DNA of 64,000 nucleotides from Patescibacteria group bacterium (GTDB taxonomy: Bacteria; Patescibacteriota; Minisyncoccia; Phycocordibacterales; Phycocordibacteraceae). This document shows positions 5,957 through 32,477 of the stretch, one piece after another (positions within the stretch are counted from its first letter, which is position 1; each line of letters starts with the position of its first letter). A program made the position numbers and the translations under genes. The stretch spans positions 18,897-82,896 of the forward strand of contig JACDGK010000003.1 of the NCBI GenBank assembly GCA_013815345.1, in the 5' to 3' direction. Below the pieces are notes generated by a model. That model did no database searches. It had not been told where the DNA came from and saw only the letters and a list, made by a program, of their open reading frames with translations.

Positions 5957-5977
5957 ATACTTTTAAGTAAGTGATAA

Positions 5978-6008: not shown

Positions 6009-6011
6009 TAT

Positions 6012-6719
6012 TTGAATTTACTTTGTCATACTGGCCGCATGGGAACTCCCGGAAGAAAACCAAGTAGAAAGGAGGAAATACAATGGTCTTCTAATATTGC
6101 ATACGCGGTAGGACTTATTGCGACGGATGGTTGTCTATCTGGAAATGGCAAAAATATTGATTTAACATCTAAGGACCGAGAACAACTTGAGAATTTCCTA
6201 ATATGTATAGAAAAAAATGTTCCAATTAGCACAAAAGCTTCGAGTTTCGCACTAAAACCAATAACACACGTTCAGTTCAGTGACGTCGTCTTGTATCGAT
6301 TTTTTCTGTCAGTTGGACTTACACCTCGCAAATCACTCACTATCGGAGCACTTAAGGTCCCGGATGAATATTTCTTCGATTTTTTACGAGGTTCTTATGA
6401 TGGAGATGGATGTTTCTATAGTTACTTTGACCCGAGATGGAAAAGCAGTTTTATGTTCTATTTAAGTTTTACTTCAGCAAGTCCCAAACATATCTTATGG
6501 CTTCGAGCGACCATTGTTCGACTTTGTTCAGTGAAGGGTCACGTAACACAAGTTGGGAAAAGAACACTCATGACAAATCTTCGGTACGCAAAGAAAGAAG
6601 CAACTATTGTACTATCACATATGTACCCTTCTTCCTCGGTACTCTGCTTAACTCGAAAGAGATTGAAAATAATTCGCGCACTCGGTATAGTTGGAATGTC
6701 GCTAGTACAAACTAGTTAA
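6012..6719 (+). CDS. Free-standing double-motif LAGLIDADG homing endonuclease
   Basis: Has two LAGLIDADG motifs, YAVGLIATDGCL and LRGSYDGDGCF. Length is 235 aa. GC is low (~37%) relative to neighbours. The real start may be at Met 6039. The stop is 2 nt before tRNA-Leu. Confidence 0.8.
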   Translation: MNLLCHTGRMGTPGRKPSRKEEIQWSSNIAYAVGLIATDGCLSGNGKNIDLTSKDREQLENFLICIEKNVPISTKASSFALKPITHVQFSDVVLYRFFLSVGLTPRKSLTIGALKVPDEYFFDFLRGSYDGDGCFYSYFDPRWKSSFMFYLSFTSASPKHILWLRATIVRLCSVKGHVTQVGKRTLMTNLRYAKKEATIVLSHMYPSSSVLCLTRKRLKIIRALGIVGMSLVQTS

Positions 6720-16415: not shown

Positions 16416-17111
16416 ATGGCAAAAGGGACAACGCAGGACTACGAAATTGAGATTAAAAGCCTTCTTGGCACCGCAGAAGCTGCGGATAAATTGCGTACTG
16501 ACCTAAAGAAAATCGACCCGACCTCCACACGTATCTCGAGCTATACGCAAATCAATCATTATTTTGAAGGAGGAAATCCGCACACGTTGGCTACTCATCT
16601 AGCTCCACATCTTGCACCCGAGCATGCAGAAAAAATGCACCAGATTGCAAAAGAGGGAAAAAATATTTCAGTCCGTTCGCGAGAAATGAATAGGGAAGTG
16701 CGCATGGTGATGAAAGCGTCCATTGGGGACGACTCCAGCGCTAACGGTGTCATGCGTATGGAAATCGAAGCACCAGTTATAGAATTTACAACACTTGAGC
16801 AGCTTGACGCTGTAGTTCTCGGCGCTGATTACACGTATCAGGCTAAGTGGTCACGTACGCGCGAAGAATATCGCGTGAAAGATGTTACTGTATGTCTTGA
16901 TAAAAATGCGGGATATGGATACCTCGCAGAGTTCGAAAAGGTAATCGATGATGCGACCCAGGCTGAAGAGGCGAAAAAGGAGTTGGTTTCACTCATGGAA
17001 ATGCTGAATGTTTCTGAATTGCCACAAGATCGGCTGGAAAGAATGTTTTCGTTTTATAATGAACACTGGCCGGAGTATTACGGGACGGAAAAAATATTTA
17101 TTGTTGAATAA
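16416..17111 (+). CDS. CYTH-domain (triphosphate tunnel metalloenzyme) protein
   Basis: N-terminal YEIEIKSLL matches the CYTH ExExK motif. Length is 231 aa. Confidence 0.6.
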   Translation: MAKGTTQDYEIEIKSLLGTAEAADKLRTDLKKIDPTSTRISSYTQINHYFEGGNPHTLATHLAPHLAPEHAEKMHQIAKEGKNISVRSREMNREVRMVMKASIGDDSSANGVMRMEIEAPVIEFTTLEQLDAVVLGADYTYQAKWSRTREEYRVKDVTVCLDKNAGYGYLAEFEKVIDDATQAEEAKKELVSLMEMLNVSELPQDRLERMFSFYNEHWPEYYGTEKIFIVE

Positions 17112-17114: not shown

Positions 17115-17678
17115 ATGTTTCTATCTGACATCGACATTAAAAAGGGCATTAAAAGCGGCGCAATCGTCATAGAGCCGTTCTCTCAAAAACGTCTTCAAAT
17201 GGCGAGTTATGACGTGACTCTCGGGAATGAATTTCAGGTAACCGACCGACATAGCACCGGAGTTATTGATCCGTTTAATAACGTGTATCCGAAGACTCGC
17301 ACGATCAAGGTAAAGGATGGCGATCCGTTCATCCTGCATCCAGGAGAAAGTGTACTGGGAAAGCAGAAAGAATTTATCGGTGTCGATCATGAACACCTGA
17401 TTCTCTTGTCAGGAAAGTCGAGTCTGGCCCGTGCAGGACTCGTGGTGCACAATACCGCCATGCTTTTTAACCCTGGCCATCATTTCTATCCCACCTTTGA
17501 ACTCGTTAACACCAATAACGTCCCCATAATTTTGCGTCCTGGCATGGAGATCGCACAGCTTCTCTTTGCAAAGCTCACCAGCATGACTTCAAAAGGGTAC
17601 GATGGTCACGGACGATACGACAAAAAAAATTCAACGCATTTCGTTCCGAAACGTACTGCGGTGCGTAAAAAAATATAA
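17115..17678 (+). CDS. dcd: dCTP deaminase
   Basis: The N-terminus MFLSDIDIKKGIKSGAIVIEPF and the overall dUTPase-superfamily pattern fit. Length is 187 aa. Confidence 0.85.
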   Translation: MFLSDIDIKKGIKSGAIVIEPFSQKRLQMASYDVTLGNEFQVTDRHSTGVIDPFNNVYPKTRTIKVKDGDPFILHPGESVLGKQKEFIGVDHEHLILLSGKSSLARAGLVVHNTAMLFNPGHHFYPTFELVNTNNVPIILRPGMEIAQLLFAKLTSMTSKGYDGHGRYDKKNSTHFVPKRTAVRKKI

Positions 17679-17689
17679 ATAACACTCGT

Positions 17690-18679
17690 ATGCCTGAATC
17701 TCGTCACCCTGAATACGCCTATCTCGATCTCCTCAAAGAAGTTTTGGAGAATGGCGAAGAGCAGGTCGATAGTGACACTGGCGTAAAGACGTACAGTCTT
17801 TTCGGTCGGCAAATACGTTTTGATCTTTCTGAAGGTTTTCCACTTTTGACGACAAAGAGAACCTATTGGAATGGCATTCTTCACGAGCTTTATTGGTTCA
17901 TGTCCGGACAGTCAAACATAAAATATCTCGTCGATCACAACGTACATATATGGGATGACTATCCGTATAAAATATATGGGGAGAAAGTTGCAAAGGGAAT
18001 TGCAACTCAGCTTTCAAAGGACGAGTTTATAGAACGTATTCATACCGATGAAGCGTTCGCAAAAGAGCATGGTGAGCTCCCACATATTTATGGTGAACAG
18101 TGGCGTCGCTGGGAAGCTACTGATGGCCGTACCGTGGATCAGCTCGCATGGGTGATCGATGAGCTTCGCAAAGATTCTGACGCACACAATACGGTGGTGA
18201 CCTCATGGAATCCCGAATATATGTACAGCATGGCAAAACCTGGTGAGGGCGCACGTTTTCCTATTTGCCACAATATGTACCAAGTGAATATTAAGAATGG
18301 CAAAGTGTGTTTACAACTCTATCAACGCTCCGCAGATATTTTCCTGGGAGTTCCTTTTAACATCGGCAGCTACGCATTGCTCACCTGCATCATCGCGAAA
18401 ATTCTCGGAAGGGAACCCGGTGAGTACATTCATACATTTGGTGATGTGCACATTTATGAAAATCATAAGGAGCAAGCTGCCGAGCAGCTCACGCGGGAAC
18501 CAAAGGCTTTTCCGACAATTTCTTTCACCGAACCGTTCAACTCACTCGATACGTTCAAACCTGAATTCGTTACACTCAATGGTTACGAACCTCACGCCAG
18601 CATCAAAGCCGACCTCACGGTTTCAGGCGGATACAACAAGAAGCTACACAGTAAGGAAGCGATGGAAGAAACCAAATAA
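17690..18679 (+). CDS. thyA: Thymidylate synthase ThyA (long form, 329 aa)
   Basis: Has the active-site motif PICHNMYQ plus LQLYQRSADIFLGVPFNIGSYALL. It is longer than E. coli ThyA. Confidence 0.9.
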   Translation: MPESRHPEYAYLDLLKEVLENGEEQVDSDTGVKTYSLFGRQIRFDLSEGFPLLTTKRTYWNGILHELYWFMSGQSNIKYLVDHNVHIWDDYPYKIYGEKVAKGIATQLSKDEFIERIHTDEAFAKEHGELPHIYGEQWRRWEATDGRTVDQLAWVIDELRKDSDAHNTVVTSWNPEYMYSMAKPGEGARFPICHNMYQVNIKNGKVCLQLYQRSADIFLGVPFNIGSYALLTCIIAKILGREPGEYIHTFGDVHIYENHKEQAAEQLTREPKAFPTISFTEPFNSLDTFKPEFVTLNGYEPHASIKADLTVSGGYNKKLHSKEAMEETK

Positions 18680-18728
18680 TTTTATGGTGTAAGTACGTCC
18701 ATAATTTATAAACTTAATTTTAAATCCA

Positions 18729-19994
18729 ATGGACTATTACACTCACATACAAAAAGAAGACCCAGACATCTATGGTTTTATCGAAGGCGAAGAGAAGCGC
18801 CAGATCGAAGGACTTGAATTAATCCCGTCCGAAAATTACGTCTCGCTTGCCGTACGTGAGGCAATGGCGTCAACGCTTACCAATAAATATTCAGAAGGGT
18901 ATCCCGGCAAGCGCTATTACGGCGGACAAGAGTTCACTGACAAGGTCGAGCTTCTGGCGATTGAACGTGCGAAGCAGCTTTTTGGCGCTAAATATGCGAA
19001 CGTGCAGCCACTCGGAGGTGCGAATGCAAACATCGCACTCTACATGGCACTTATGGAACCTGGCGACACGATACTCGGCATGGATCTATCGCACGGCGGT
19101 CACCTCACGCACGGTCATCCGGTGACGTACATCTCAAAGATCTTTAATTTCGTGCGATATAAGATGAAAAATATTGAGACGGGGGAGATCGACTATGACG
19201 CACTTCGTGAAACCGCAAAGAAAGAAAAACCGAAAGTAATTCTTGCTGGATTCTCAGCCTATCCCCGTGAGCTCGAGTGGCAGAAGATCGCTGACATCGC
19301 AAAAGAGGTGGGTGCGTATGCCGTTGCCGACGTCGCGCACATTGCCGGGCTTATTGCCGGCGGAGCCCAGAAGAATCCTTTCGATTATGGATTCGATGTG
19401 ATGACCACCACAACGCACAAGACACTTCGCGGGCCGCGTGGCGGTATGATTGTCACGCGAGAAAACGAAGAGGTCGCAAAAAAAATAGACAAAGCAGTCT
19501 TTCCTGGTCTTCAGGGTGGTCCACATATGCATCAGATAGCAGCAAAAGCGATTTCGTTCCGTGAGGCGCTACAGCCATCTTTTAAAACGTATGCAGCGAA
19601 GGTTGTACAGAATGCATCGGCGATGGCAGAGGTATTCAAGGCGGGTGGTGTACGAATGATCACTGGTGGTACAAGCAACCACCTCATTCTGGCGGATGTA
19701 TTTGGTTCGCTTGGTATTTCGGGTCAGGATGCAGAAAAAATTCTCGATGAAGCCGGCATCACCCTGAACAAGAACACTATTGCGGACGATGTGCGCAAGC
19801 CGATGGACCCGTCCGGCATTCGTTTTGGTACACCGGCAATGACCACTCGTGGATTTGGCGTCGAGGAATCCAAACAAGTAGCAGAACTGATGCTTGATGT
19901 ACTACAGAAACGTGATGCTGCAACTGTTTCGAAAGCGCGCGAAGCAGTGAAAGCATTGGCCGCTTCGCACCCGATTCCCGAATCTTTTGTGTAG
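18729..19994 (+). CDS. glyA: Serine hydroxymethyltransferase
   Basis: SENYVSLAVREAMASTLTNKYSEGYPGKRYYGG and the PLP-lysine region TTTTHKTLRGPRGG. Confidence 0.9.
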   Translation: MDYYTHIQKEDPDIYGFIEGEEKRQIEGLELIPSENYVSLAVREAMASTLTNKYSEGYPGKRYYGGQEFTDKVELLAIERAKQLFGAKYANVQPLGGANANIALYMALMEPGDTILGMDLSHGGHLTHGHPVTYISKIFNFVRYKMKNIETGEIDYDALRETAKKEKPKVILAGFSAYPRELEWQKIADIAKEVGAYAVADVAHIAGLIAGGAQKNPFDYGFDVMTTTTHKTLRGPRGGMIVTRENEEVAKKIDKAVFPGLQGGPHMHQIAAKAISFREALQPSFKTYAAKVVQNASAMAEVFKAGGVRMITGGTSNHLILADVFGSLGISGQDAEKILDEAGITLNKNTIADDVRKPMDPSGIRFGTPAMTTRGFGVEESKQVAELMLDVLQKRDAATVSKAREAVKALAASHPIPESFV

Positions 19995-20037: not shown

Positions 20038-21717
20038 ATGGCAACGGAGGGAACACTGGATATAGAAGGGCAGATACGACAGGCAACTGACGAAGCACTC
20101 GCCGAGCTGGGTGCGCGCGATGTGAATTTTGCCGTTGAATGGCCGGCAGACATATCGCACGGCGACTACGCGGTGAATGCAGCCATGGCTGCCGCAAAAG
20201 TACTGGGCAAGAATCCTCGCGAGCTCGCGGCAGAGCTCGCACCAAAGATCAAAGAAAAACTCGGCACACTCGTGACGGCCGTAGAGTTTGCTGGTCCTGG
20301 CTTCATTAACATTACCCTTGCGCACCGGACTATTTCGGATGAAATTCAGAAAGTAATTCAGTTGCGTAAAGACTGGGGTACGAACAAAACGAAAGAAGGT
20401 AAAAGAATAATCATCGAGTTTTCGAACACGAATGCGTTTAAAGAAATGCATATCGGCCACCTCATGAGCACCATTATCGGTGAGTCACTCGCACGAATTA
20501 TCGAATCATCTGGAGCGAAGGTTGCGCGTGATTCATACGGGGGTGATGTGGGACTTCACGTTGCAAAAGCACTTTGGGGATTGCAGAAAGCTGGAATCAC
20601 GGATCCCGCAACTGCTAAAGAGATCGGCAAGGCGTATACGCATGGCTCCCGTGCGTACGAAGAAAGCGCCGAGGCGAAAATAGAAATCGATACGCTTAAT
20701 GTAGCGATATATAAAGGAGACGATCGCGAGCTTATGGAACTATGGCGTAAAGGCCGAGATGTTTCCATGAGTGCCTTCAAAGAGCTACATCGGTTACTCG
20801 ATACTCATTTTGATTATTATTTTTTCGAGAGTGAGACCGCGCCTATCGGCGCGGAAATAGTGAAAGACCAGCTTACTCGAGGCGTATTTGAGGAAAGCGA
20901 AGGGGCGATTATTTATAAAGGAGAGAAGGTAGGATTACACACGCTGGTCTTTATTACCTCGCGCGGGACGCCCACCTATGAAGGGAAAGATGTTGGACTT
21001 GCCTACCTTAAAGAAGAACGGTGGCCGTCCGATGAGTCCATTATTACGACCGCTACTGAACAAATCGGCCATTTTAAAGTATTTCTCGCAGCTCTTTCTG
21101 AAATTGCGCCGCTTCTGGCCGCTAAGACGCGCCATGTGACCCATGGCTTTTTACGTCTTACGAGCGGCAAAATGTCTTCACGTGAAGGAAATGTCATCAC
21201 GGCCGCATCGCTCATTCACGACGTTATAGAAAAGACGAGTGAACGGAATCCCGATCCATTGATCGCCGAACAGGTAGCAATGGCTGCGATTAAATATTCG
21301 ATACTCAGACAATCAGCAGGTTCGGATATTATTTTCGATTTTGAAAAATCACTTTCTCTCGAAGGTGACTCAGGACCGTATCTTCAATATGCACTTGTGC
21401 GCGCAAGGTCAGTGATCGCGCAAGCGACATCGTCCCCAAAAGAAACATCTGATGATGCGCCGAATGAACCGTATACCCTTGAACGTTTTATCGTTCGTTA
21501 TCCTGGAATTGTTCTACGAGCACAGAAAGATCTCGCGCCGCATCATCTTGCGCAGTACCTCACCCAGCTCGCCAGTGGATGGAACTCATTTTATGCGAAT
21601 GAACGTATCATTGGAGGTTCTCACGAAGAATATAAATTGCAACTCGCGCGAGCGTTCGTAACCACAATGGAAAATGGCCTTCACCTACTGGGTATTCCGG
21701 TACCGGAAAAGATGTAA
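20038..21717 (+). CDS. argS: Arginyl-tRNA synthetase
   Basis: Has the HIGH motif (HIGHLMSTIIGESLAR) and a C-terminal DALR anticodon-binding domain. Confidence 0.9.
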   Translation: MATEGTLDIEGQIRQATDEALAELGARDVNFAVEWPADISHGDYAVNAAMAAAKVLGKNPRELAAELAPKIKEKLGTLVTAVEFAGPGFINITLAHRTISDEIQKVIQLRKDWGTNKTKEGKRIIIEFSNTNAFKEMHIGHLMSTIIGESLARIIESSGAKVARDSYGGDVGLHVAKALWGLQKAGITDPATAKEIGKAYTHGSRAYEESAEAKIEIDTLNVAIYKGDDRELMELWRKGRDVSMSAFKELHRLLDTHFDYYFFESETAPIGAEIVKDQLTRGVFEESEGAIIYKGEKVGLHTLVFITSRGTPTYEGKDVGLAYLKEERWPSDESIITTATEQIGHFKVFLAALSEIAPLLAAKTRHVTHGFLRLTSGKMSSREGNVITAASLIHDVIEKTSERNPDPLIAEQVAMAAIKYSILRQSAGSDIIFDFEKSLSLEGDSGPYLQYALVRARSVIAQATSSPKETSDDAPNEPYTLERFIVRYPGIVLRAQKDLAPHHLAQYLTQLASGWNSFYANERIIGGSHEEYKLQLARAFVTTMENGLHLLGIPVPEKM

Positions 21718-22069
21718 ACAAAAGATGGAGAACGTGTCTTGCACGGGAAAGCAACTCGCGTTATGGTCATACGCGGAACTGGTTATTTTGGTTCTGTTAA
21801 AAACGGGGAACATTCAGGTATGGTGAATAATGGATGGCAGCCTGAGCTCGGGGAATTAAGAAAGTTCAGGAGATCCTCTCTCGAGGAAGACAGGGCAGGA
21901 GCGGAGGTGCCTCGATCAACATCACCAAAGAACGGACAGGAATCCAAAAACCAGAAGACGCATTGTTTTCGGCGACCAATTCAGCTGCGGAAATAGTAAT
22001 CAGGGCATAACAGCCGACGCGCCCGTCGGCTGTTTCTTTTTACCCTCGCAAACGCTAGGATAGATAATA

Positions 22070-25000
22070 ATGTCTCAAACGCCCGATACCCCGGAAAAAT
22101 CAGATGCTGCAAAGCGAGAGGAGCAAATCTTGGCGTTTTGGAAAGAGCACCAGATATTTGAGAAATCCCTTGAAAAAGAAGCACCAAAGGGCGAATTTAT
22201 ATTTTACGATGGACCGCCTTTTGCAACGGGACTGCCCCATTCTGGCTCTCTACTTTCCTCTGTTTCTAAAGATCTCATTCCTCGGTATAAAACAATGCGT
22301 GGCTATAAGGTGCGTCGTCGCTGGGGATGGGATACCCACGGTCTTCCTATCGAATCACTTGTTGAAAAAAAACTCGGACTCAAGAACAAAAAAGAGATTC
22401 TTGCTATCGGTGTAGAAAAGTTTAATGAGACAGCGCGCGAAATGGTTTTGGAATATGTACAGGATTGGAAGCGTTATGTGGAGCGGGTAGGCCGATGGGT
22501 TGATTTTGATAATTCATACAAGACGATGGATACGACTTTTATCGAATCGGTCTGGTGGGGATTAAAACAAATTCACGAAAAAGGGCACCTGTACGAGGGA
22601 AGAAAAGTTTTGATGTATTGTCCTCACTGCGAGACGCCTTTGGCAAAGGCGGAGATTGCCATGGATAACACCTATAAGGATATAACTGAAGAGGCAGTAA
22701 CCGTAAAATTCAAAGTAAAAAATCCAGAGAAACATGGATTACCTGAAAACACCTTTCTGCTCGCCTGGACCACGACGCCGTGGACGCTTCCAGGAAACGT
22801 GGGACTCGCCGTGGGGAAAGAAATTATCTATTCACTGGCGAAGCAAGAAAATGGAGAAACTATCATTCTCGCAAAAGACCTTCTCGCCTCATATAGTCTT
22901 TCTGATGAAGATAAGATTGATTCAAAAGTATTTCCTACACTACAGGGAAACGAATTAGTCGGAATCGAGTACGAACCACTCTATGAAATTCCAAGAGTTG
23001 TCGCGCACGAAGGAAAGAAATGGCAGGTACTTTCCGCGGATTTTGTACATACAGAAGAGGGAACCGGCATTGTGCATACCGCCGTTATTTATGGAGAAGA
23101 CGACTATACCCTCGGTCTGAAAGAAGGGCTACCGATGGTACCGATCCTTAACCCAAATGCGACATATAACGAAGACGCACCGGAGTTTTTGCATGGTAAA
23201 TATATCAAAAAAGCTGAAGCTGATATTAAAGCGGATCTCGAATCACGCGGACTTCTTTTTGAGAAGGCGGTCCATACTCACTCGTATCCACACTGTTACC
23301 GCTGCGGTACGCCCCTTATTTATAATGCTGTTTCGAGTTGGTTTATAAATATTCAAGCAGTAAAAGAAAAACTTCTCGCCGAGAACGAGACTATCAGGTG
23401 GATACCCGAGCATCTGAAGCACGGTCGGTTTCGACACCTTCTTGAGACTGCACCTGATTGGACGATCTCTCGCAATCGTTTTTGGGCGAGCCCACTCCCT
23501 ATATGGAAGGATGTGAAAGGGAAGGTCACGGTCATAGGTTCGCTGGAGGAACTCAAAAGCCATGTCAAAAAAAGTGGCAATACCTATTTCGTCATGCGTC
23601 ATGGAACGACCGATAACAATATCAAGAAACTCTTAAGTTCGGTGCGCGACTCGACGGTCGGGCTTAATGATGAAGGTCGTGACGAAATAAAGGCTGCAGC
23701 AGAAAAGTTGACTTCACACGGCATAACGCAGATATATTCATCTCCTTTTTTACGAACGCGTGAGACGGCAGAAATTGTTGCGAAAGAGATCGGTCTCTCA
23801 ATTGAATCAATAGTAAGTGACGATCGACTCTCCGAATTTAACTTTGGTGAGTTTAACGATGGGCCACTCGATAAATTCTTTGAGTACCGCGATACCCATG
23901 CATATGAGGAAGCATTGCCAGGGGGAGAGAGTGATCAGGAAGCCAAAAACCGTTTTGGCGATTTTCTGTATGAAATAGAACGTACCCATTCCAACGAAAC
24001 GATATTAATTGTGACGCATGGCATTGGCCTTGAAGCATTGGGAGCTATTGCACTCGGTGCTGATAAAAAAGAGTCTAAACGATTACTGAAGACCCTTTTT
24101 GCTGAACGAGGGGAAGTGCGCAGGCTTGATTTTATTCCCATGCCGCACAATCGTAATTATGAACTCGACTACCACCTTCCGTATATTGATGAAATCCAAC
24201 TACTCGATAGTGAAGATGAACCGCTCACTCGAATTCCGGAGGTAGTTGATTGTTGGGTTGAGTCAGGTTCGATGCCATTCGCTGAATACCATTATCCGTT
24301 TGAACATAAAGAAGAATTTGCGAAACGCACACCAGGAGATTTTATCTCGGAATACATAGGACAGACTCGTGCATGGTTTTATTACATGCACGTAATGAGC
24401 ATAGAACTTTTCGGCCACACCGCGTTTCGCAATGTGCTCACAACCGGAACGATACTGGCCGCTACTGGCGAAAAGCTTTCGAAAAGCAAAAAGAATTACA
24501 CCGATCCGTATGTGCTCTTTGATCGTTTTAGTGCCGATGCGTTTCGGTATTATCTTATGTCAGGAGTGGTTATGCAGGCAGAAGATCTTGTTTTTAAAGA
24601 TGAGGAGATAAAAGAATCGCAGAATCGCATTGTAAACATGCTACGAAACGTGCTCGCGTTCTACATTCTTTTTAAAGAAGATCTTACCGAAGGAACGGTG
24701 AAGGATAGCGAAAACATTCTTGATCGGTGGATACGTGCGCGTGTTGCAGAAGTAACTTTTCAAGCAACTGAAAATTTTGATCGATACGATGTCATTCATG
24801 CTACCCGCCCCATGCGTGATTTTATCGACGATCTTTCGACCTGGTACGTTCGTCGCTCACGTGAGCGAATAAAGGGAAGTGATACTGCTGATAAACAGTA
24901 CGCACTTCAGACTCTTCGATCGGTGCTCATTCAATTCGCAAAAGTTATTGCACCGGTGATGCCATTTGTTGCTGAAGAACTCTTTCAAGAATTGCGAAGT

Positions 25001-25516
25001 GAAACCGACTCGGAAAGTGTACATCTGTGCACGTGGCCCGAAGCTGGATTGGTAGATGCGACGCTTATTGAAGATATGGTACATGTTCGCACACTCGCCT
25101 CTGAAGCACTCATGCTCCGACAAAAAATCGGTGTGAAAGTGCGTCAGCCGCTTGCGAAGCTTTCGATACCAGGGGAGCTTTCATCAGAACTCAAGGAGAT
25201 CCTCAAAGAGGAAGTAAATGTAAGGGAGATAGAGACAGGCGCCTCTGCGATGTCGCTCGATGCGGAACTTACGCCAGAACTCATTCGAGAGGGAGATGTG
25301 CGCGAATTCATGCGCACACTGGCCGATGCGCGTAAAGACAAAGGTCTTTCTCCGAAAGATATAGTTTCGCTGACAATGGGTACAGAAGGACAATCGATAC
25401 TGGACGGAGTCCCACTCCCCGGCATTTCTCAGGTACTGTTTGGCGCAGTGTCCGATGCTGCCTATACGGCGAATCTTTCTTTTGGTTCGATTTCATTTTC
25501 GATCGATGCGTCATAA
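22070..25516 (+). CDS. ileS: Isoleucyl-tRNA synthetase (type 2) with an in-frame ~190 aa histidine-phosphatase (PGAM-like) insertion
   Basis: Class I motifs are present: P-x-x-TG-LPHSGS, the editing-domain TTPWT and GTGIVHTA, and KMSKS as KLSKSKKN. Between PIW..VIGSLEELK (~nt 23575) and ..YIDEIQL..VVDCWVESGSMPF (~nt 24150) sits YFVMRHGTTDNN ... RTRETA ... ILIVTHG. These are the RHG and catalytic-His signatures of histidine phosphatase branch 1. Confidence 0.9.
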   Translation: MSQTPDTPEKSDAAKREEQILAFWKEHQIFEKSLEKEAPKGEFIFYDGPPFATGLPHSGSLLSSVSKDLIPRYKTMRGYKVRRRWGWDTHGLPIESLVEKKLGLKNKKEILAIGVEKFNETAREMVLEYVQDWKRYVERVGRWVDFDNSYKTMDTTFIESVWWGLKQIHEKGHLYEGRKVLMYCPHCETPLAKAEIAMDNTYKDITEEAVTVKFKVKNPEKHGLPENTFLLAWTTTPWTLPGNVGLAVGKEIIYSLAKQENGETIILAKDLLASYSLSDEDKIDSKVFPTLQGNELVGIEYEPLYEIPRVVAHEGKKWQVLSADFVHTEEGTGIVHTAVIYGEDDYTLGLKEGLPMVPILNPNATYNEDAPEFLHGKYIKKAEADIKADLESRGLLFEKAVHTHSYPHCYRCGTPLIYNAVSSWFINIQAVKEKLLAENETIRWIPEHLKHGRFRHLLETAPDWTISRNRFWASPLPIWKDVKGKVTVIGSLEELKSHVKKSGNTYFVMRHGTTDNNIKKLLSSVRDSTVGLNDEGRDEIKAAAEKLTSHGITQIYSSPFLRTRETAEIVAKEIGLSIESIVSDDRLSEFNFGEFNDGPLDKFFEYRDTHAYEEALPGGESDQEAKNRFGDFLYEIERTHSNETILIVTHGIGLEALGAIALGADKKESKRLLKTLFAERGEVRRLDFIPMPHNRNYELDYHLPYIDEIQLLDSEDEPLTRIPEVVDCWVESGSMPFAEYHYPFEHKEEFAKRTPGDFISEYIGQTRAWFYYMHVMSIELFGHTAFRNVLTTGTILAATGEKLSKSKKNYTDPYVLFDRFSADAFRYYLMSGVVMQAEDLVFKDEEIKESQNRIVNMLRNVLAFYILFKEDLTEGTVKDSENILDRWIRARVAEVTFQATENFDRYDVIHATRPMRDFIDDLSTWYVRRSRERIKGSDTADKQYALQTLRSVLIQFAKVIAPVMPFVAEELFQELRSETDSESVHLCTWPEAGLVDATLIEDMVHVRTLASEALMLRQKIGVKVRQPLAKLSIPGELSSELKEILKEEVNVREIETGASAMSLDAELTPELIREGDVREFMRTLADARKDKGLSPKDIVSLTMGTEGQSILDGVPLPGISQVLFGAVSDAAYTANLSFGSISFSIDAS

Positions 25517-26078
25517 ATATGCCACTGCCGCGTTTGTTCTCGCTCGGACACCTTTCGGCGAAGCGAGTGCCTTTATTCATCTTTTGACCCCGGATCTAGG
25601 TCTTCTTCGGGCACGCGCGCAAAGTGTGCGAAAACCAGGAGCCAAGCTTGCTTCTGCTCTCCAGACCTTTTCTGAAACAGACGTCATCCTCGTGCGGGGA
25701 AAAGATGGCTGGCGTCTTTCGGGAGCGGTACTCGTACGTTCGTGGTTTCCGGAACTTTCGAAGCCCGCGCGCTTGCGCGCGGGCCGCACTGCGGGCCTCC
25801 TACTGCGTCTTCTGCATGGCGAGTCAGTTGACCCGATATTTTTTGCGATTTTCAGTCAGTTTCTGACGGTATTGCCCCACATACACGATGCCGCGCAAGA
25901 AGACGCGGCGGAATGTTTAGCCGCACTTCGCATACTTCATGCCGCCGGCGTTGATGCAGGTGAAATCCCTGGAGGTTTGGAAGGCGCGTACACACCCGAC
26001 CTTTTGCAGGAACTTACAAACGATCGATCGGAATACATTCTTCGCATCAACCGCAGTATTGTCGCCTCAGGTCTTTAG
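25506..26078 (+). CDS. recO: DNA repair protein RecO
   Basis: YATAAFVLARTPFGEASAFIHLLTPDLGLLRARAQSVRK matches the RecO N-terminal OB-fold. Local GC is higher. The start overlaps the ileS stop by ~10 nt. Confidence 0.65.
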   Translation: MRHKYATAAFVLARTPFGEASAFIHLLTPDLGLLRARAQSVRKPGAKLASALQTFSETDVILVRGKDGWRLSGAVLVRSWFPELSKPARLRAGRTAGLLLRLLHGESVDPIFFAIFSQFLTVLPHIHDAAQEDAAECLAALRILHAAGVDAGEIPGGLEGAYTPDLLQELTNDRSEYILRINRSIVASGL

Positions 26079-26155
26079 GTGTGAGCACCACAAGGGCACT
26101 TCCAAATTACTAATTCGCTATCGCTCATAAGGAATTTTGGTCGTATACTTTCCTT

Positions 26156-28066
26156 ATGCCGCCGAATGAGCAAAATGATGAAGTAAGTTCTCTTGAAAAG
26201 CTGCGCGAGCGTCTCTATACGCCAAATACAAATACTAATTTTCAAGAACCTACTCTTTCGCGTGCTCCCACACCTCCAGCAACCAGCAGCTGGCGACCCC
26301 CGCCTCCGCCACCTCCGAGACCTCGGCGAAAACCAATGTCACGAGTCGTACTTTTTCTTTTTGGTGCGCTTGCCTTTTTCATTCTCGCGGGTCTTGCGTC
26401 ATTCCTATTTCTCTATCTTGGCACGCGGTCCGTTTCAAATGACAATATTACTATTACTGCGGTACCGAATCCGACCAGCATAGCGAGCGGTTCAGTCGTG
26501 CAGCTCGTCATCACGATCAAGAATCATAATCCAACCGCTCTGATCAACACAGACATCTCTCTCGATTTTCCTGACGGGACCCGCACCGCAGAGGACGTAA
26601 CACAGCCACTTGTGCGATATGCGGATACGCTTGGCGCGATTCCTGCGGGTGGCACGGTGACCCGTACAATATCAGCCGTATTATTCGGCAGTGTGAATCA
26701 AACCGTAACGGTTCCGGTTACTTTCCAATACCGCACCACCGGTTCTAATGCGCTTTTCACTAAAGAACAGAAGCTCACGCTCACTATCACCAGCGCTCCT
26801 CTTACTATCACTGCGAACACGGTAAGTACGGTAGCTTCGGGTCAGTCCTTTGCATTTTCAGTTGCGGTTCGCTCGAACGCCAGCACCGTATTGAATAATA
26901 TCGGCGTGGTTGCAACATACCCACCCGGATTTACGGCATCACATACGAGTGATGGTCCTGCAAATACTCAATTTTTCCCTATCGGTACATTGCAGCCCGG
27001 TGAAGAAAAAGATTTCGTGATACAGGGTGCGCTCTCGGGATCAAATAACGATCAACGCGTCTTCCAATTTACCGTGGGTACCGCGAAAGACGATGGATCA
27101 GCGACCTTAGCAGTCGCGTACGCCAGTCAACAAACGCAAGTAGCCATCTCCAAGCCGTTTCTTGCCGTATCTCTCTCAGTCAACAATAGTAATGCGAATC
27201 CTGTTATCGTCTCAGCTGACCAGCCTATTACGAGTGCGGTCTCATGGACAAACTCACTTTCATCTGCGATCACGAATGGGAAAGTGTCGATAAAGTTTTC
27301 AGGAAATGCCCTTGATCCAACCAGTGTAACAACAGCCAATGGCTACTATGACTCAACCAATACGACCCTTCTCTTCGATGGCCAGTCGGAGCTAAGTCTT
27401 CAAAGCCTCAATCCGGGAGACAACGGGAACGGCTCTTTTGGTTTTTCAACGAAGTCAGGCACCGCTCTTATGGCACTTCGCAATCCAACGATACAACTTA
27501 CGGTATCAGTCGCCGGACAGCATAGCGGAATCGGAAATTCAGAAACGATACTAAATACTCTCACGCAGACCATACAGATAGCGACGGATCTAAAACTCAT
27601 TTCAACGGTTGTGCACACAATCGGACCTTTCCCCAATTCAGGACCATGGCCGCCGAAAGCCAATACGCCAACAACGTATACAATTCTCTGGAATATTACG
27701 AACACGGTTAATTCGGTCGGTGGTGCTTCGGTGAGCGCTATCCTCCCTTCGTATGTAACCTTTACCGGCAAAATCAATCCTAGCGATAGTTCCGTTACCT
27801 ATGACGATACGAGCCGCACCGTTACCTGGAAGGTCGGCGATGTGCAGCCAGGAACGGTTTCTAAGCCGCTACAGGCCGCCTTCCAAGTGTCGATCTTGCC
27901 GAGCGTATCTCAGGTAGGAACCGCGCCTATTCTCATTGGCAATCAAACACTTACCGGTACCGATCGCTTTACCGGTACGCAGGTAGGTACTATTTCTCCT
28001 GCACTTTCGACTCAGACTCCAACTGACCCTGCGTACCAAATACAGTTTGGCAACGTCGGAAATTAA
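26156..28066 (+). CDS. Large cell-surface protein (type II membrane anchor, Pro-rich cytoplasmic N-terminus, repeated beta-rich extracellular domains)
   Basis: 636 aa. It has a PPPPPPPRPRR stretch, a single TM, and then T/S/N-rich repetitive Ig-like sequence. Confidence 0.45.
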   Translation: MPPNEQNDEVSSLEKLRERLYTPNTNTNFQEPTLSRAPTPPATSSWRPPPPPPPRPRRKPMSRVVLFLFGALAFFILAGLASFLFLYLGTRSVSNDNITITAVPNPTSIASGSVVQLVITIKNHNPTALINTDISLDFPDGTRTAEDVTQPLVRYADTLGAIPAGGTVTRTISAVLFGSVNQTVTVPVTFQYRTTGSNALFTKEQKLTLTITSAPLTITANTVSTVASGQSFAFSVAVRSNASTVLNNIGVVATYPPGFTASHTSDGPANTQFFPIGTLQPGEEKDFVIQGALSGSNNDQRVFQFTVGTAKDDGSATLAVAYASQQTQVAISKPFLAVSLSVNNSNANPVIVSADQPITSAVSWTNSLSSAITNGKVSIKFSGNALDPTSVTTANGYYDSTNTTLLFDGQSELSLQSLNPGDNGNGSFGFSTKSGTALMALRNPTIQLTVSVAGQHSGIGNSETILNTLTQTIQIATDLKLISTVVHTIGPFPNSGPWPPKANTPTTYTILWNITNTVNSVGGASVSAILPSYVTFTGKINPSDSSVTYDDTSRTVTWKVGDVQPGTVSKPLQAAFQVSILPSVSQVGTAPILIGNQTLTGTDRFTGTQVGTISPALSTQTPTDPAYQIQFGNVGN

Positions 28067-28081
28067 GGGTACAAAGGAACT

Positions 28082-29467
28082 ATGAAAGAACCCGTTACAC
28101 TTGAAGCCATCGTCTCACTTTGTAAAAGACGGGGATTCGTCTTTCCTGGTTCAGAAATATATGGCGGTCTCGCCGGCACTTTTGATTATGGTCCACTCGG
28201 TCTAACACTGAAGAAAAATATCGAGAAGCTGTGGTGGGAGCAATTTGTTGATATACGCGATGATATGTTTGGCATCGATTCTGCGATACTTATGAATCCT
28301 CGCGTATGGGAGGCTTCTGGGCATGCGGCCACTTTTAATGATCCACTTGTCACTGATGTAAAAACAAAAAAGCGGTATCGCGCCGACCACCTTCTCGAGG
28401 AAGCAGGGATCGACCCAGTGGGCATGAGTCTGGAAGAAATAGGAGCTATGCTGAGTGAAAAAGATATCAAGAGTCCTGATGGCAATTCTTTTAGTGAACC
28501 GCAACAATTCAATATGATGTTCAAGACATCAGTCGGCTCGGTCGAAGGGGGCGAGATGCCGCTGTATCTCCGTCCGGAGACCGCGCAGGGCATGTTCGTG
28601 AATTTCAAAAACATTATCGACTCGTTCCATCCAAAACTTCCATTCGGTATCGCGCAGATTGGCAGAGCGTTTCGAAATGAGATTGCTCCACGGGAATTCC
28701 TTTTCCGTGTGCGTGAGCTTGAAATTATGGAATTTGAATATTTCCTACAGGAAAAAGAATGGGAAACGGCATTCGAATATTGGCGGGTTCAAATACACGC
28801 GTGGTTTAAGATGCTGGGTTTCGAAGCCGACGATATAAAAGAAGTAGAAGTATCGGGTACCGATCGCGCGCATTATTCGAAACGTACCCTCGATTTTTAT
28901 TTTAAATATCCGAACGGCTACAAAGAGATCGGTGGACTAGCATACCGCACCGATTTTGACCTTACGAATCATGAGCGCGAGAGTGGTCAAGAGCTTCACT
29001 ATCTCGATCCCGAGACAAATGAAAAATCAGTGCCACACGTCATAGAACCGACCTTCGGTCTGGGTCGACACGTGCTCGCAGTACTCGCAAAGGCATACGA
29101 TGAAGACGAGCTTGGTGGGGAAACGCGCAGCGTGCTTCGTTTCAGTCCGAAACTCGCGCCGATAAAGGCGATGGTATCGCCACTTCTGAAAAATAAACCT
29201 GAACTAGTCGAGAAAGCGAGGGAAGTACGTGCGCAACTTCGAAAGATTCACCCAGCCATTGCGTGGGATGATAACGGCAACATCGGCAAGCGGTATCGTC
29301 GCCAAGATGAAATAGGCACGCCGTGGTGTATTACCATCGACTTCGACACACTTGGGGAAACTCCGGAACTCAAAGACGCCGTAACGCTCCGCGATCGCGA
29401 CACGGGAGAGCAAGAACGTCTCACGGTCGACGAAGTCGCCGAACGCATGCGCATCGCGCTTGCGTAA
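28082..29467 (+). CDS. glyQS: Glycyl-tRNA synthetase, alpha2 (archaeal/eukaryotic-like) type
   Basis: The N-terminus RRGFVFPGSEIYGGLAGTFDYGPLG plus class II motifs fit. Length is 461 aa. Confidence 0.9.
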   Translation: MKEPVTLEAIVSLCKRRGFVFPGSEIYGGLAGTFDYGPLGLTLKKNIEKLWWEQFVDIRDDMFGIDSAILMNPRVWEASGHAATFNDPLVTDVKTKKRYRADHLLEEAGIDPVGMSLEEIGAMLSEKDIKSPDGNSFSEPQQFNMMFKTSVGSVEGGEMPLYLRPETAQGMFVNFKNIIDSFHPKLPFGIAQIGRAFRNEIAPREFLFRVRELEIMEFEYFLQEKEWETAFEYWRVQIHAWFKMLGFEADDIKEVEVSGTDRAHYSKRTLDFYFKYPNGYKEIGGLAYRTDFDLTNHERESGQELHYLDPETNEKSVPHVIEPTFGLGRHVLAVLAKAYDEDELGGETRSVLRFSPKLAPIKAMVSPLLKNKPELVEKAREVRAQLRKIHPAIAWDDNGNIGKRYRRQDEIGTPWCITIDFDTLGETPELKDAVTLRDRDTGEQERLTVDEVAERMRIALA

Positions 29468-29539
29468 GAAAATTTTACGAACGATTGTTTTCTGTATGAA
29501 AAACTCGCCAATCCGAAGACAGCGAGCTTGTTAAGCGTC

Positions 29540-29851
29540 TCAAACTAATACTTCCATTTTTTCAAGTTTAAAATAAATCCAGTCGATTATCGCTCGATGC
29601 ACGGAGGAGGCAGGCGATAGCTCACCCCACTCCCACCGCTCGATCGTGATCCGATTTAGTGCAAATTCATCTCGAAACTCGTCGATGGAGATGCCGGAGA
29701 TACGAGCGAGTCGTATGATCTCTCCGAAATTCAACTGGCTCGTACCTTCTTCTTGAGGAAGGCAACCGTTCGCGAGCAAAAGAAGGAATTTCTTTCTTGT
29801 TTCTGATGCCACTTCAGCAATCAGACGAGCGTAGGGACTAGAGTTCATCAC
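29540..29851 (-). CDS. Hypothetical small protein, possibly HTH
   Basis: 103 aa. LNFGEIIRLARISGISIDEF resembles a helix-turn-helix. Confidence 0.3.
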   Translation of the reverse strand: MMNSSPYARLIAEVASETRKKFLLLLANGCLPQEEGTSQLNFGEIIRLARISGISIDEFRDEFALNRITIERWEWGELSPASSVHRAIIDWIYFKLEKMEVLV

Positions 29852-29960
29852 TCCCTCCGTGACTGTCTGGCTTGAACCATAGCATGAGGAGGTCTATTCG
29901 CCATATCCTAACCCCTAGTGTTGGAAGAAGGTAAAACTGTTTTTATGCTACTATTTTCGT

Positions 29961-31025
29961 ATGAATAAACAGGTGAACGTCACTATTTCGCTTAGCACCA
30001 TTCTCACCATTCTCCTTATAGGTGCGGGTGCGTACGCTCTCTGGATTCTCCGCGGTCTCGTTCTTCTCGTGCTCACCGCCGTAGTCATCGCCTCGGCTAT
30101 CGAGCCGGGTGTCATCGCATTTCGCCGCTTGCGGATTCCCCGTGTGCTCGCGGTGTCGCTTATGTACATACTCGTGTTCGGTACGCTCTTCGGTATTATT
30201 TATTTCTTCTTTCCTCCGATACTAAACGATACCGAGAATTTCCTCTCGATCATTCCGCAATACTTGAACACGCTTAATTTGCCTGGAGGAGTTCTAAACG
30301 GTACACCTTTCGGCACTCCTTCGGGAGCGCATCAGTCACAATCGATCTTCCAAACATTGTTTGCATTCCAATCAGCTTTTTCGGTAGGCACTTCCGCGGG
30401 CGCATTCCGTTTGATCTCGACATTCTTCGGCGGTGTCTTTTCTCTCTTCATCGTCGTAGTCCTTTCATTTTATTTTGCGATACAAGAAACGGGCGTCGAG
30501 GACTTCTTGAGACTTGTCACCCCATCCCGTTTTGAAACGTATGTAATCGATCTCTGGCATCGCGCACAGGTAAAGATCGGTCAATGGATGCAGGGTCAAC
30601 TCCTGCTCTCACTTATTGGTGCGGTGATCATTTACCTCGGGCTTCTTATTATTGGCGTGCCAGACGCACTCCTCTTGGCAGTATTCACGGGTATTGCAGA
30701 ACTCATCCCAATATTTGGCTCATTCATAGCAGGTTTTCCTGCTGTCATTATCGCGTACTCGGCGGGGGGCGTACCACTCGCGCTTATTGTGGCGGGTCTC
30801 TTTATCATCGTGAATCAGTTTGAAGGGAATCTGATCCATCCTCTGGTGGTGAAAAAGGTCGTAGGCGTGCCGCCTCTGCTTGTCCTCCTAGCTATCATCG
30901 CAGGTGGCGACCTGGCAGGGTTCTTGGGTGTCGTACTCGCCGTGCCGCTCGCGGCGGTTGTGCGAGAAGCGCTCGGTGACTATGACCGCCGCAAACGCCG
31001 CCTTGCGAGTCCGGAGAAACCATAA
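29961..31025 (+). CDS. AI-2E family transporter (PerM/YdiK-like, UPF0118)
   Basis: Has eight TM segments. The GIAELIPIFGSFIAGFPAVIIAY region is typical of AI-2E transporters. Confidence 0.75.
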   Translation: MNKQVNVTISLSTILTILLIGAGAYALWILRGLVLLVLTAVVIASAIEPGVIAFRRLRIPRVLAVSLMYILVFGTLFGIIYFFFPPILNDTENFLSIIPQYLNTLNLPGGVLNGTPFGTPSGAHQSQSIFQTLFAFQSAFSVGTSAGAFRLISTFFGGVFSLFIVVVLSFYFAIQETGVEDFLRLVTPSRFETYVIDLWHRAQVKIGQWMQGQLLLSLIGAVIIYLGLLIIGVPDALLLAVFTGIAELIPIFGSFIAGFPAVIIAYSAGGVPLALIVAGLFIIVNQFEGNLIHPLVVKKVVGVPPLLVLLAIIAGGDLAGFLGVVLAVPLAAVVREALGDYDRRKRRLASPEKP

Positions 31026-31031
31026 CCCACA

Positions 31032-32477
31032 ATGAGTCGCTATATTACGACTACGTTGCCCTATGTAAATGGCGATCCACACATCGGCCATTCGCTCGAA
31101 TTCGTGCAAGCGGATACGCTTGCACGCGTATGGCGATCACAAGGCGAAGAGGTGTTTTTCTCCACTGGCACCGATGAACATGGTCAGAAAATATTCGAAG
31201 CGGCTGCAAAAGCTGAGACAGAAGTGCATTCGTATGTAGATCAGTATGCGAAAGAATTTCAAAAACTCATGGGCGCCTTAGATATAAGCAATACATTGTT
31301 TGTGCGTACGACTGATCCTCATCACTATGAAGCAGCACAAGAGATGTGGCGTCGATGTGCCGAAGCCGGGGATGTTTATGAGAAATCATATCGAGGTCTG
31401 TACTGCGTGGGGTGCGAAGCATTTAAGACGGAACATGAACTCGACGCAGAAGGACGCTGTATTTTGCATCTTTCGCTTATGCCCCAGTTTCTCGAAGAAA
31501 AGAATTATTTCTTTCGACTTTCGAATTACGCAAATCAGTTACTTGAATACTTAGGTCATCCGGAAGCCGTTCTTCCGCAGTGGAGAAGGGAAGAGGCTAT
31601 CAATTTCGTGAATCAAGGTCTTGAAGACATCAGTATTTCTCGAGAGAAAAGTAGGCTCGCGTGGGGCGTGCCTGTTCCCCATGACGATACGCAAGTCATG
31701 TACGTGTGGTTTGACGCGCTTACCAGCTACCTCTCAATTCTTGGCTGGCCGAATGATCCAGATGGAAATGTTGAGAAATTTTGGAATCAAGGGGAAACAT
31801 TGCAATTTGCAGGGAAAGATCAGGTCCGTTTTCAATCGATCCTGTGGCAGGCCATGCTCATGTCGGCAAAGATGAAAGTAACCGACCACGTTTTCTATCA
31901 TGGATTTATAAATTCGAATGGCCAAAGAATGAGCAAGAGTTTAGGAAACGTTATCAGCCCGTATGAGCTTATTTCAAAATATGGCACTGACGCGACCCGC
32001 TACATCCTTTTACGGCACATTCATCCAGCGAATGATTCGGACGTGACCTGGGAACGACTCGATGAATGGTATACAGCACATCTGGTAAACGGGCTTGGCA
32101 ATCTCGTAGCACGTGTGATGAAATTGGCCGAAAGTTATCTCTCCTCTCCGGTATCACTCGAACTCAACGACACGAGCATCGACGATACCTTTATCAATAG
32201 AACGGAGGAATTTCGTTTCAACGAAGCGGTAGACTACATATTCGATATGATCGCAGAGTGTGACGCGGTCATGACCGAGCGCGAGCCGTATAAAAAAGTG
32301 AAAAGCGATCTACAAAGTTTGAGCGACGAAGGGAAGGGTGATATTACGCTGCTCGTGCGGCATCTCGCGAAGATCGCCATACAACTTTCAGCGGTTATGC
32401 CACAGACTTCCGAAATAATTCTCTCTGCAGTGAAAAAGAACATCAAACCAGAGAATCTTTTTCCACGACTTACCTAA
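31032..32477 (+). CDS. metG: Methionyl-tRNA synthetase (short form without a C-terminal dimerisation domain)
   Basis: Has HIGH as PHIGHSLEF and KMSKS as RMSKSLGN. Confidence 0.9.
   Translation: MSRYITTTLPYVNGDPHIGHSLEFVQADTLARVWRSQGEEVFFSTGTDEHGQKIFEAAAKAETEVHSYVDQYAKEFQKLMGALDISNTLFVRTTDPHHYEAAQEMWRRCAEAGDVYEKSYRGLYCVGCEAFKTEHELDAEGRCILHLSLMPQFLEEKNYFFRLSNYANQLLEYLGHPEAVLPQWRREEAINFVNQGLEDISISREKSRLAWGVPVPHDDTQVMYVWFDALTSYLSILGWPNDPDGNVEKFWNQGETLQFAGKDQVRFQSILWQAMLMSAKMKVTDHVFYHGFINSNGQRMSKSLGNVISPYELISKYGTDATRYILLRHIHPANDSDVTWERLDEWYTAHLVNGLGNLVARVMKLAESYLSSPVSLELNDTSIDDTFINRTEEFRFNEAVDYIFDMIAECDAVMTEREPYKKVKSDLQSLSDEGKGDITLLVRHLAKIAIQLSAVMPQTSEIILSAVKKNIKPENLFPRLT

Follow-up and report, generated by a model that had tools for sequence, protein, structure and literature searches.

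To our knowledge, bacterial aminoacyl-tRNA synthetases with extra catalytic domains are rare. The closest described case is the isoleucyl-tRNA synthetase (IleRS) of SR1 bacteria, which is interrupted by two phosphoglycerate mutase (PGM) domains and a Nudix domain (Kantor et al. 2013, mBio, PMC3812714). A literature search for IleRS or other tRNA synthetases with histidine phosphatase or PGM domains returned this single sentence of 2013 and no functional study. Here we analyze a stretch of 64,000 nucleotides from a Patescibacteria group bacterium (assembly GCA_013815345.1, contig JACDGK010000003.1, positions 18,897 to 82,896), hence termed the window, in which the ileS gene encodes an IleRS with a histidine phosphatase inside. 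The same phosphatase module appears in other Patescibacteria as a free protein or as a fusion to ArgRS at the equivalent locus, and we think that it probably serves this locus as an active enzyme.

A histidine phosphatase domain within IleRS

The window ileS is a single open reading frame (ORF) encoding 1148 amino acids, as the original prediction stated. Its product scores 799 bits with the ileS equivalog model TIGR00392 (cut-off 621) and has the Pfam layout tRNA-synt_1 (aa 19-501 and a later stretch), His_Phos_1, Anticodon_1 and DUF5915. All domains of a class Ia enzyme are present, namely the Rossmann fold, the CP1 editing domain, the anticodon-binding domain and the DUF5915 C-terminal domain. 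The best sequence matches in PDB are the IleRS of Thermus thermophilus (1ILE) and IleRS2 of Priestia megaterium (8C8V), and by fold the protein is closest to P. megaterium IleRS2 and yeast IleRS. The synthetase keeps its domains and the KMSKS loop and is otherwise a complete type-2 IleRS. It is the housekeeping enzyme of a Paceibacteria-type Patescibacterium.

The His_Phos_1 family (PF00300) was found at aa 507-671 of the full protein with E=1.1e-31 (110.5 bits, cut-off 21.7); the excised segment alone matches it with E=3.8e-33 (115.2 bits). The insert contains the motifs YFVMRHG (R510, H511, G512), FLRTRETAEIV (R562) and ILIVTHGIG (H650). Its assignment to branch 1 of the histidine phosphatases, which had been read from these motifs, is thus confirmed by the hidden Markov model search. 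Among the 120 best IleRS homologs (62-100% identity), R510, H511, R562 and H650 are each conserved in all proteins and G512 in 118, while S558/P559, G619/E620 and G651 are near-invariant. The catalytic residues are still invariant in a deep alignment (A2) of 20 sequences with identities down to 31%. Averaged over the 120 homologs, column identity is 0.55 in the insert and 0.83 in the synthetase core, so that the insert as a whole changes faster in evolution. The conservation of the catalytic set of R510, H511, R562, E589 and H650 shows that it is under purifying selection across a deep clade and that the domain is ancient; the embedded phosphatase is apparently active.

Structure prediction points the same way. 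The full-length AlphaFold2 (AF2) model has pLDDT of 86-96 across aa 500-700, and the model of the domain alone folds confidently as a separate unit (pLDDT 89.8, pTM 0.88). Foldseek compares the domain model, with probability 1.00 and TM scores of 0.77-0.83, to the phosphoserine phosphatase iPSP1 (4IJ6), PhoE (1H2E), HFP (9MMH) and the alpha-ribazole phosphatase CobC (6E4B). The structures in this TM range include a riboflavin-pathway histidine phosphatase, mycobacterial hydrolases and a glucosyl-3-phosphoglycerate phosphatase. The insert is a bona fide branch-1 histidine phosphatase domain with the full catalytic set, and by these models it folds independently.

The insert also matches NCBIfam models for CobC, RNase H/acid phosphatase, archaeal dPGM and PspA, but its scores fall well short of the cut-offs in every case. 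It scores 31 bits with the phosphoglycerate mutase model TIGR01258 (cut-off 81.7) and 71-76 bits with the archaeal short form NF038349 (225), 74-79 bits with the alpha-ribazole phosphatase CobC model TIGR03162 (162.9), and 53-57 bits with the phosphoserine phosphatase PspA model NF045917 (350), so that it is not assigned to any of these families. The embedded domain is acidic, with pI 5.2 and a net charge of -10. The median pI of embedded and free members of the family is 5.8, and the copies fused to ArgRS are basic (pI 9.5).

The insertion site

Residues 14-501 of the window IleRS pair with positions 11-482 of the 1ILE chain, and residues 699-1021 with positions 488-820. The aligned blocks stop at 501 and resume at 699, and therefore aa 502-698, about 197 residues, fill the place of a loop that has about five residues in 1ILE. 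The alignment with 8C8V gives the same picture, aa 502-698 being unmatched. The original prediction had placed the insert at 23575-24150, which is accurate to within a few codons.

The insertion point lies in the CP3 subdomain. CP3 is peripheral and binds zinc only in Thermus, and no two of the solved IleRS share its topology (PMC7191050, whose definition of CP3 is used here for its two halves). The zinc ligands of the Thermus enzyme, C461/C464 in PIWVCQACGK and C502/C504 in VELACACGG, lie on either side of the insertion point. The window IleRS has a gap, K483, D713 and E715 at these four positions and thus lacks the Cys4 zinc site of CP3. The hairpins of the knuckle, KVTVIGSLEELK and LDYHLPYIDEIQLL...LTRIPE, are kept, and therefore the phosphatase sits in their tip loop. 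The C-terminal half of CP3 runs into the amino-acid-pocket strand VVDCW(729)VESG. The original prediction was right that the zinc-knuckle cysteines are absent. Its suggestion that the phosphatase takes the place of the knuckle is rejected, since the hairpins are retained and distant fused IleRS preserve the cysteines, and its placing of the insert in the catalytic core was overstated, the tip of CP3 being peripheral.

Many distant fused IleRS, e.g. P0128, P0166, P0204 and P0217, have CxxC...CxC/CxxC motifs on both sides of the phosphatase. Because these proteins keep the zinc cysteines, we conclude from the alignments that the domain entered an intact zinc knuckle and that the cysteines were lost later, as a secondary event, in the subclade of the window IleRS.

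The HIGH motif of the window IleRS is non-canonical as well, reading HSGS, with the fourth His replaced by Ser. HxGS is found in about 108 of the 120 closest homologs, and more distant fused IleRS read HYGH. HxGS is a derived, clade-wide change of the catalytic signature motif. We rejected a connection between this change and the insert because the distant fused enzymes have HYGH. Another variant, of the GxHH type (...NNPMGVHHAWG...), stands at the HIGH position of insert-less IleRS at loci L084 (7573-10491), L086 (7669-10641) and L088 (7576-10539).

Distribution of the insert

The comparison with related genomes showed that the insert is widespread: PF00300 is present in all 120 nearest IleRS. 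These come from NCBI, JGI, ENA and Logan assemblies, on contigs of up to 721 kb, labelled Patescibacteria, Paceibacterota or Parcubacteria. An identical protein is already present in the NCBI nr database under the name 'class I tRNA ligase family protein'. An exhaustive search with the insert against 1.84 billion cluster representatives yielded 892 matches at E<=1e-10. The best 150 of these representatives include 86 with IleRS flanks, two with ValRS flanks and one with ArgRS flanks; the synthetase parts of the 86 are only 35-70% identical to the window IleRS. Among the matches listed for GTDB species genomes, insert-bearing ileS genes occur in Paceibacteria/Minisyncoccia, Yanofskybacteria, Spechtbacterales and Peregrinibacteria, and the type-2 IleRS of Chitinophagales, Clostridia, Actinomycetes and Saccharimonadales have no insert.

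The proposal of a new synthetase-phosphatase fusion was therefore not borne out. Given the nr entry, the presence of PF00300 in 120 of 120 relatives and the precedent of Kantor et al. 2013 (PMC3812714), the architecture is not new, but it is essentially undescribed.

Free, fused and embedded forms at one locus

A family of free-standing His_Phos_1 proteins of 189-195 aa is conserved in Staskawiczbacteria/Parcubacteria. In all six genomes examined, the free gene comes right after argS and precedes ileS, and recO follows. The gaps between argS, the phosphatase gene and ileS are 1-130 bp; sometimes one small gene intervenes, and in one case it encodes a CYTH protein. The ileS gene of these genomes has no insert. 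The insert-less ileS at L084, L086 and L088 belong to another type-2 lineage, with 34-35% identity to the window IleRS and an intact Cys knuckle. Those at L089 and L090 belong to the same lineage as the window enzyme (45-47% identity), with the free gene present. Conversely, all 11 insert-bearing loci with enough upstream sequence have argS directly upstream of ileS and no free phosphatase gene between them.

The boundaries of the module are the same in the free, ArgRS-fused and embedded forms. The free proteins start with M-(K/I)-L-N-N-K-Y-Y-x-L-R-H-G and end with G-(Q/E)-V-(K/R)-E-L-N-stop, and the embedded module runs from S-G-N-x-Y-F-x-M-R-H-G to G-E-V-R-R-L-D-F. Since the boundaries are shared and the free gene is missing at insert-bearing loci, we conclude from the gene and protein comparisons that these are likely one module in three mutually exclusive states at one locus.

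The third state, fusion to ArgRS, is rare and occurs in three of 120 Patescibacteria ArgRS clusters (P0265, P0271 and the 49%-identical P0272). Its genomic contexts match the gene order of the window. At L081 the fused argS is followed by recO with no ileS between, and at L082 ileS comes directly after the fusion. In the fused proteins ArgRS ends at its normal ...PEHM and the module directly follows. The possibility that the fusion is a deletion remnant of an argS-ileS locus with an embedded phosphatase was rejected, as no IleRS-derived sequence was found at the ArgRS-phosphatase junctions. Simple joining of argS with the free gene downstream would be the better explanation. Each of the two fused domains is closest to a different free-standing protein, and the two ArgRS fusions are therefore independent.

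The CYTH (triphosphate-tunnel) protein is encountered twice in this neighborhood. At L089 its gene (5570-6160) lies exactly between the free phosphatase gene and ileS, and in the window a CYTH gene is found at 16416-17108, at a distance of 3 kb on the upstream side of argS. The neighborhood may thus have a further phosphate-handling member in this protein.

Repeated capture by IleRS, ValRS and ArgRS

Unusual matches were scanned with Pfam and NCBIfam, and their insertion sites were mapped against the window IleRS. Two His_Phos_1 domains are found in the IleRS P0153, P0169, P0219 and P0244 and at the Peribacteria loci L018 and L021, and three in P0250. ValRS proteins contain one domain (P0207) or four (P0136), and the ArgRS P0265 has a C-terminal one. 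All tandem copies keep RHG, except one copy that reads RHA.

Besides the CP3 tip (site A), as in the window IleRS, domains were mapped after the second CxxC (site A'), after the ESGSMPFA/WFSSG motif (site B; IleRS P0169, P0244, P0268 and P0153, and ValRS P0207) and before the anticodon-binding domain (site C); in the ValRS P0136 they are in CP2. The second copies of site-A tandems belong to another His_Phos_1 subfamily, of the RHGETDWN type, which is related to free tandem proteins. Related domains thus occupy four or more surface sites in IleRS and ValRS besides the CP3 tip, in addition to the ArgRS C-terminus. No Nudix box was found by a regular-expression search over 270 related proteins or by a Pfam scan of the Peribacteria variants of 1484-1489 aa, and a Nudix partner of the SR1 kind was rejected for this family.

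One metagenomic representative IleRS, P0222 (1066 aa), has three in-frame guests: an IS200-like Y1 transposase domain within CP1 (aa 340-461), a His_Phos_1 domain at aa 680-854, which is in CP3, and, close to site B, a GNAT acetyltransferase (aa 935-1063). It could be a genuine three-guest enzyme or an oddity of gene calling or assembly.

Possible function of the phosphatase

On balance, we consider it probable that the module is an active metabolite-type phosphatase that partners the ArgRS/IleRS locus. A complete His_Phos_1 domain of about 190 aa, similar to PhoE, iPSP1 and CobC, has been spliced into the CP3 tip loop of IleRS. The phosphatase would be a dedicated functional partner of the locus, and its covalent embedding would fix 1:1 co-expression and co-localization with the synthetase. 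It would hydrolyze a phosphomonoester or a terminal phosphate via a phospho-His511 intermediate. Its substrate would most likely be a small metabolite or nucleotide connected with aminoacylation, not the tRNA body, as suggested by the structural neighbors, the acidic charge and the free-protein form. The partnership itself is suggested by the gene neighborhood, the Rosetta-stone fusions and the complementary distribution, which together are a classical signature of a functional link.

Several points weigh against such a partnership. Conserved synteny in one small-genome clade can persist without a functional link, and fusion to the neighboring argS is mechanistically easy. L081 retains the module fused to ArgRS although the locus has no ileS, so any link would not be strictly to IleRS. 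The insert misses every NCBIfam phosphatase equivalog cut-off and hence is not assigned to a specific enzyme family. The defence-system profiles of PADLOC also gave no match.

If the partnership holds, an intact phosphatase inside or beside IleRS over a large part of Patescibacteria, captured also by ValRS and ArgRS and sometimes in 2-4 copies, could reveal an unrecognized phosphate-dependent step tied to tRNA charging in organisms with minimal metabolism. The occurrence of the same module in nature as a free protein, a terminal fusion and an internal insertion provides a concrete system for experimental tests. There are consequences for annotation as well: NCBI names such essential enzymes only 'class I tRNA ligase family protein', and metabolic reconstructions of candidate phyla radiation (CPR) genomes may wrongly count the embedded domain as a phosphoglycerate mutase.

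Alternatively, the module could be an ordinary metabolic phosphatase (a phosphoserine, sugar-phosphate or ribazole phosphatase, or a short PGM) whose gene stands beside argS and ileS by chance, that was fused to or inserted into its neighbors by local rearrangement in streamlined genomes, and that works independently of the synthetase. We regard this as possible but rather unlikely. Its nearest structures and sequences are indeed metabolite phosphatases, the domain is acidic, and some lineages have the module as a free protein that works on its own. Rv2228c-type proteins, in which His_Phos_1 is fused to RNase H without obvious coupling, offer a precedent, and the corresponding model NF005567 is among the NCBIfam matches of the insert. 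Joining to the adjacent argS requires mere loss of a stop codon, by which the ArgRS fusions are easily explained, and the CP3 insertion site is peripheral and structurally variable (PMC7191050). However, adjacency to argS and ileS cannot account for the ValRS fusions. Chance rearrangement also fits poorly with independent captures at five or more IleRS/ValRS sites, the involvement of a second subfamily of the RHGETDWN type and tandem arrays of as many as four copies, with the long retention over a deep clade with invariant catalytic residues, and with the complementarity of the free, embedded and fused states at one locus.

It is also conceivable, although doubtful, that class Ia synthetases of Patescibacteria require the phosphatase as an accessory activity, whether it is a separate subunit, fused to the C-terminus or inserted internally, and that it acts directly on a species bound to the synthetase. 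For example, it might take a blocking phosphate off the tRNA 3' end or destroy a phosphorylated nucleotide by-product or inhibitor at the active site. In that case a previously unrecognized repair or quality-control step would be built into aminoacylation.

A very unlikely alternative is that the domain heals tRNA ends, removing a 2'/3'-phosphate (or pyrophosphate with a Nudix partner, as in SR1) from the CCA end, so that a damaged or toxin-modified tRNA could be recharged by the same enzyme. Mycobacterial MutT1 combines Nudix and His_Phos chemistry in sequential steps. The SR1 IleRS, which joins PGM-type domains to Nudix (PMC3812714), recalls this chemistry, and the MutT1 model NF052459 is among the matches of the insert. 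The association with three class Ia synthetases, all of which handle the tRNA 3' end, and the basic charge of the ArgRS-fused copies would also agree with tRNA-end healing. On the other hand, the IleRS-embedded and free domains are acidic, the close structural neighbors all act on small molecules, and neither the 270 relatives searched nor the Peribacteria variants showed a Nudix box. We also know of no histidine phosphatase that acts on RNA 3' ends.

A pseudo-enzyme without activity, whose role is structural or regulatory and which merely stabilizes CP3 in place of the lost zinc site, would fit the loss of the zinc ligands in the window's subclade and the faster evolution of the insert, but it is effectively excluded by the invariant catalytic residues, by the many fused IleRS that keep zinc cysteines and phosphatase together, and by the free-standing orthologs.

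An assembly chimera or a selfish mobile insertion, intein-like or IS-derived, is effectively refuted: the transposase domain in P0222 indicates that foreign DNA can land in such genes, but the same architecture is found in more than 120 clusters from independent assemblies, including all 120 nearest homologs, and there is no compositional break, the insert having the same GC content (0.44-0.47) as the remainder of ileS. The Pfam scan of the ileS product found no intein/Hint or homing endonuclease domain, in agreement with the absence of intein signatures noted in the original prediction, and no direct or inverted repeats were found around the insert. No second copy of the phosphatase module was found in the window.

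Genomic context of ileS in the window

Coordinates of ileS, its phosphatase insert and the conserved neighboring genes are given in Table 1. The gene order is argS, ileS with the embedded phosphatase, recO, a large surface protein, a class II synthetase, an AI-2E transporter and metS.

Table 1. Features of the ileS locus (positions are those of the window)
Feature	Position	Strand	Evidence and remarks
argS, conserved upstream neighbor	20038..21717	+	Pfam; synteny across loci
ileS, type-2 IleRS with phosphatase inside	22070..25516	+	single ORF, 1148 aa
HIGH signature position, H57-S58-G59-S60	22238..22249	+	aligns to HVGH of 1ILE
N-terminal half of CP3, aa 473-501, ..PLPIWKDVKGKVTVIGSLEELKSHVKK	23486..23572	+	aligned to 1ILE 453-482; zinc-ligand positions not Cys
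Inserted segment, aa 502-698 (His_Phos_1 module and short C-terminal linker FIPMPHNRNYE)	23573..24163	+	absent from 1ILE and 8C8V
Core histidine-phosphatase fold (predicted), aa 503-690	23576..24139	+	domain-only AF2 model and Foldseek
RHG motif R510-H511-G512 (phosphate-binding Arg and nucleophilic His)	23597..23605	+	conservation in homologs
R562, second phosphate-binding Arg, SPxxRTxET motif	23753..23755	+	120/120; invariant in A2
E589, putative general acid/base (proton-donor Glu)	23834..23836	+	116 Glu and 4 Asp of 120
H650, second catalytic His, THG motif	24017..24019	+	120/120; invariant in A2
C-terminal half of CP3, aa 699-724, LDYHLPYIDEIQLLDSEDEPLTRIPE	24164..24241	+	aligns to 1ILE 488-513
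KMSKS-type loop, K802-L-S-K-S806	24473..24487	+	sequence; position confirmed
recO, conserved downstream neighbor	25440..26078	+	Pfam RecO_N; same order in L001, L004, L081, L084, L086, L088 and L091

The recO ORF as listed has a TTG start at 25440 and overlaps the 3' end of ileS by 77 nt (25440-25516). The true start is probably further downstream, because the RecO_N match begins at residue 23. The intergenic gap between argS and ileS (21718-22069) is 352 bp, and several related loci have shorter gaps (7-100 bp in L003-L005); at the gathering threshold, no Rfam family was found in this gap.

The region 20038-32477 is a dense cluster of aminoacyl-tRNA synthetases, in which argS and ileS are joined by genes for a class II enzyme (28082-29467), whose anticodon domain is of the HGTP type, and for a short enzyme similar to MetRS (31032-32477). 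This order recurs in distant Patescibacteria loci. Amid the synthetase genes, at 26156-28066, a surface protein of 636 aa is encoded that is proline-rich and DUF11-like. On its upstream side, argS directly adjoins a dTMP synthesis cluster of dCTP deaminase, thymidylate synthase and serine hydroxymethyltransferase (17115-19994). Since the solved structure closest to the insert is that of a phosphoserine phosphatase, a possible role of the phosphatase in serine supply was considered.

Elsewhere in the window, the 23S rRNA gene (47776-52062) is interrupted after about model position 2472 by approximately 1.2-1.5 kb. The interruption contains an ORF for a LAGLIDADG endonuclease (50738-51229; Pfam E=4e-7) and a group-I-intron-like element (51509-51770), which matches RF00028 with 47.3 bits and so narrowly misses the gathering score of 50. 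The 23S gene has another, smaller gap at 50100-50146. The 5S gene follows at 52158-52263 and the 16S gene starts at 63146; the rRNA operon is unlinked, as 16S is about 11 kb downstream of 23S-5S.

Comparison with known systems

In its domain order, the zinc site of the CP core (C184/C187/C409/C412) and the DUF5915-type C-terminus, the window IleRS is similar to 1ILE of T. thermophilus and to the P. megaterium IleRS2 8C8V. It differs from both in having about 197 residues in place of about five, in the loss of the CP3 cysteines and in the change of HIGH to HSGS.

Among the solved phosphatases, PhoE (Bacillus stearothermophilus YhfR, 1H2E/1EBB), iPSP1 (4IJ5/4IJ6) and CobC (6E4B, 3HJG) are compact branch-1 enzymes of about 200 aa, like the insert, with TM scores of 0.77-0.83 to it, sequence E-values of 1e-11 to 3e-7 and the same RHG/R/E/H set. 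Their identity to the insert is only 19-27%, and they are not, like it, part of another enzyme. Their substrate specificity is not transferable to the insert, because the insert misses all curated equivalog cut-offs.

His_Phos_1 is joined to a nucleic-acid or nucleotide enzyme also in the Rv2228c-type RNase H/acid phosphatase (NF005567) and in MutT1 (Nudix and His_Phos_1, NF052459). These proteins differ in being terminal fusions with other partner enzymes, and the insert scores far below their cut-offs. An IleRS with an extra enzymatic domain is also represented by NF040702 (isoleucine--tRNA ligase, N-acetyltransferase domain-containing), where the guest is GNAT and not a phosphatase. The window IleRS scores 324 bits with this model (cut-off 1999) and shows no GNAT domain in the Pfam scan; P0222 combines His_Phos_1 with a GNAT guest of this kind.

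The SR1/ACD80 IleRS (Kantor et al. 2013, mBio, PMC3812714) is the nearest in architecture. Like the window enzyme, it is a functionally uncharacterized CPR IleRS interrupted in frame by domains of the His_Phos_1/PGM type. It has two PGM domains and a Nudix domain, whereas the window IleRS has a single His_Phos_1 in CP3 and no Nudix. Its published account is one sentence, without insertion sites, conservation analysis or locus comparison.

The free Patescibacteria His_Phos_1 proteins of the P0242 family (189-195 aa), annotated as 'broad specificity phosphatase PhoE' or 'histidine phosphatase family protein', have the same fold and catalytic residues as the window module. They differ from it in being separate polypeptides, about 30-36% identical to the embedded domain, and share with it the module boundaries (N-x-Y-F/Y-x-x-RHG ... 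G-E-V-x-x-L) and the argS ... ileS ... recO neighborhood.

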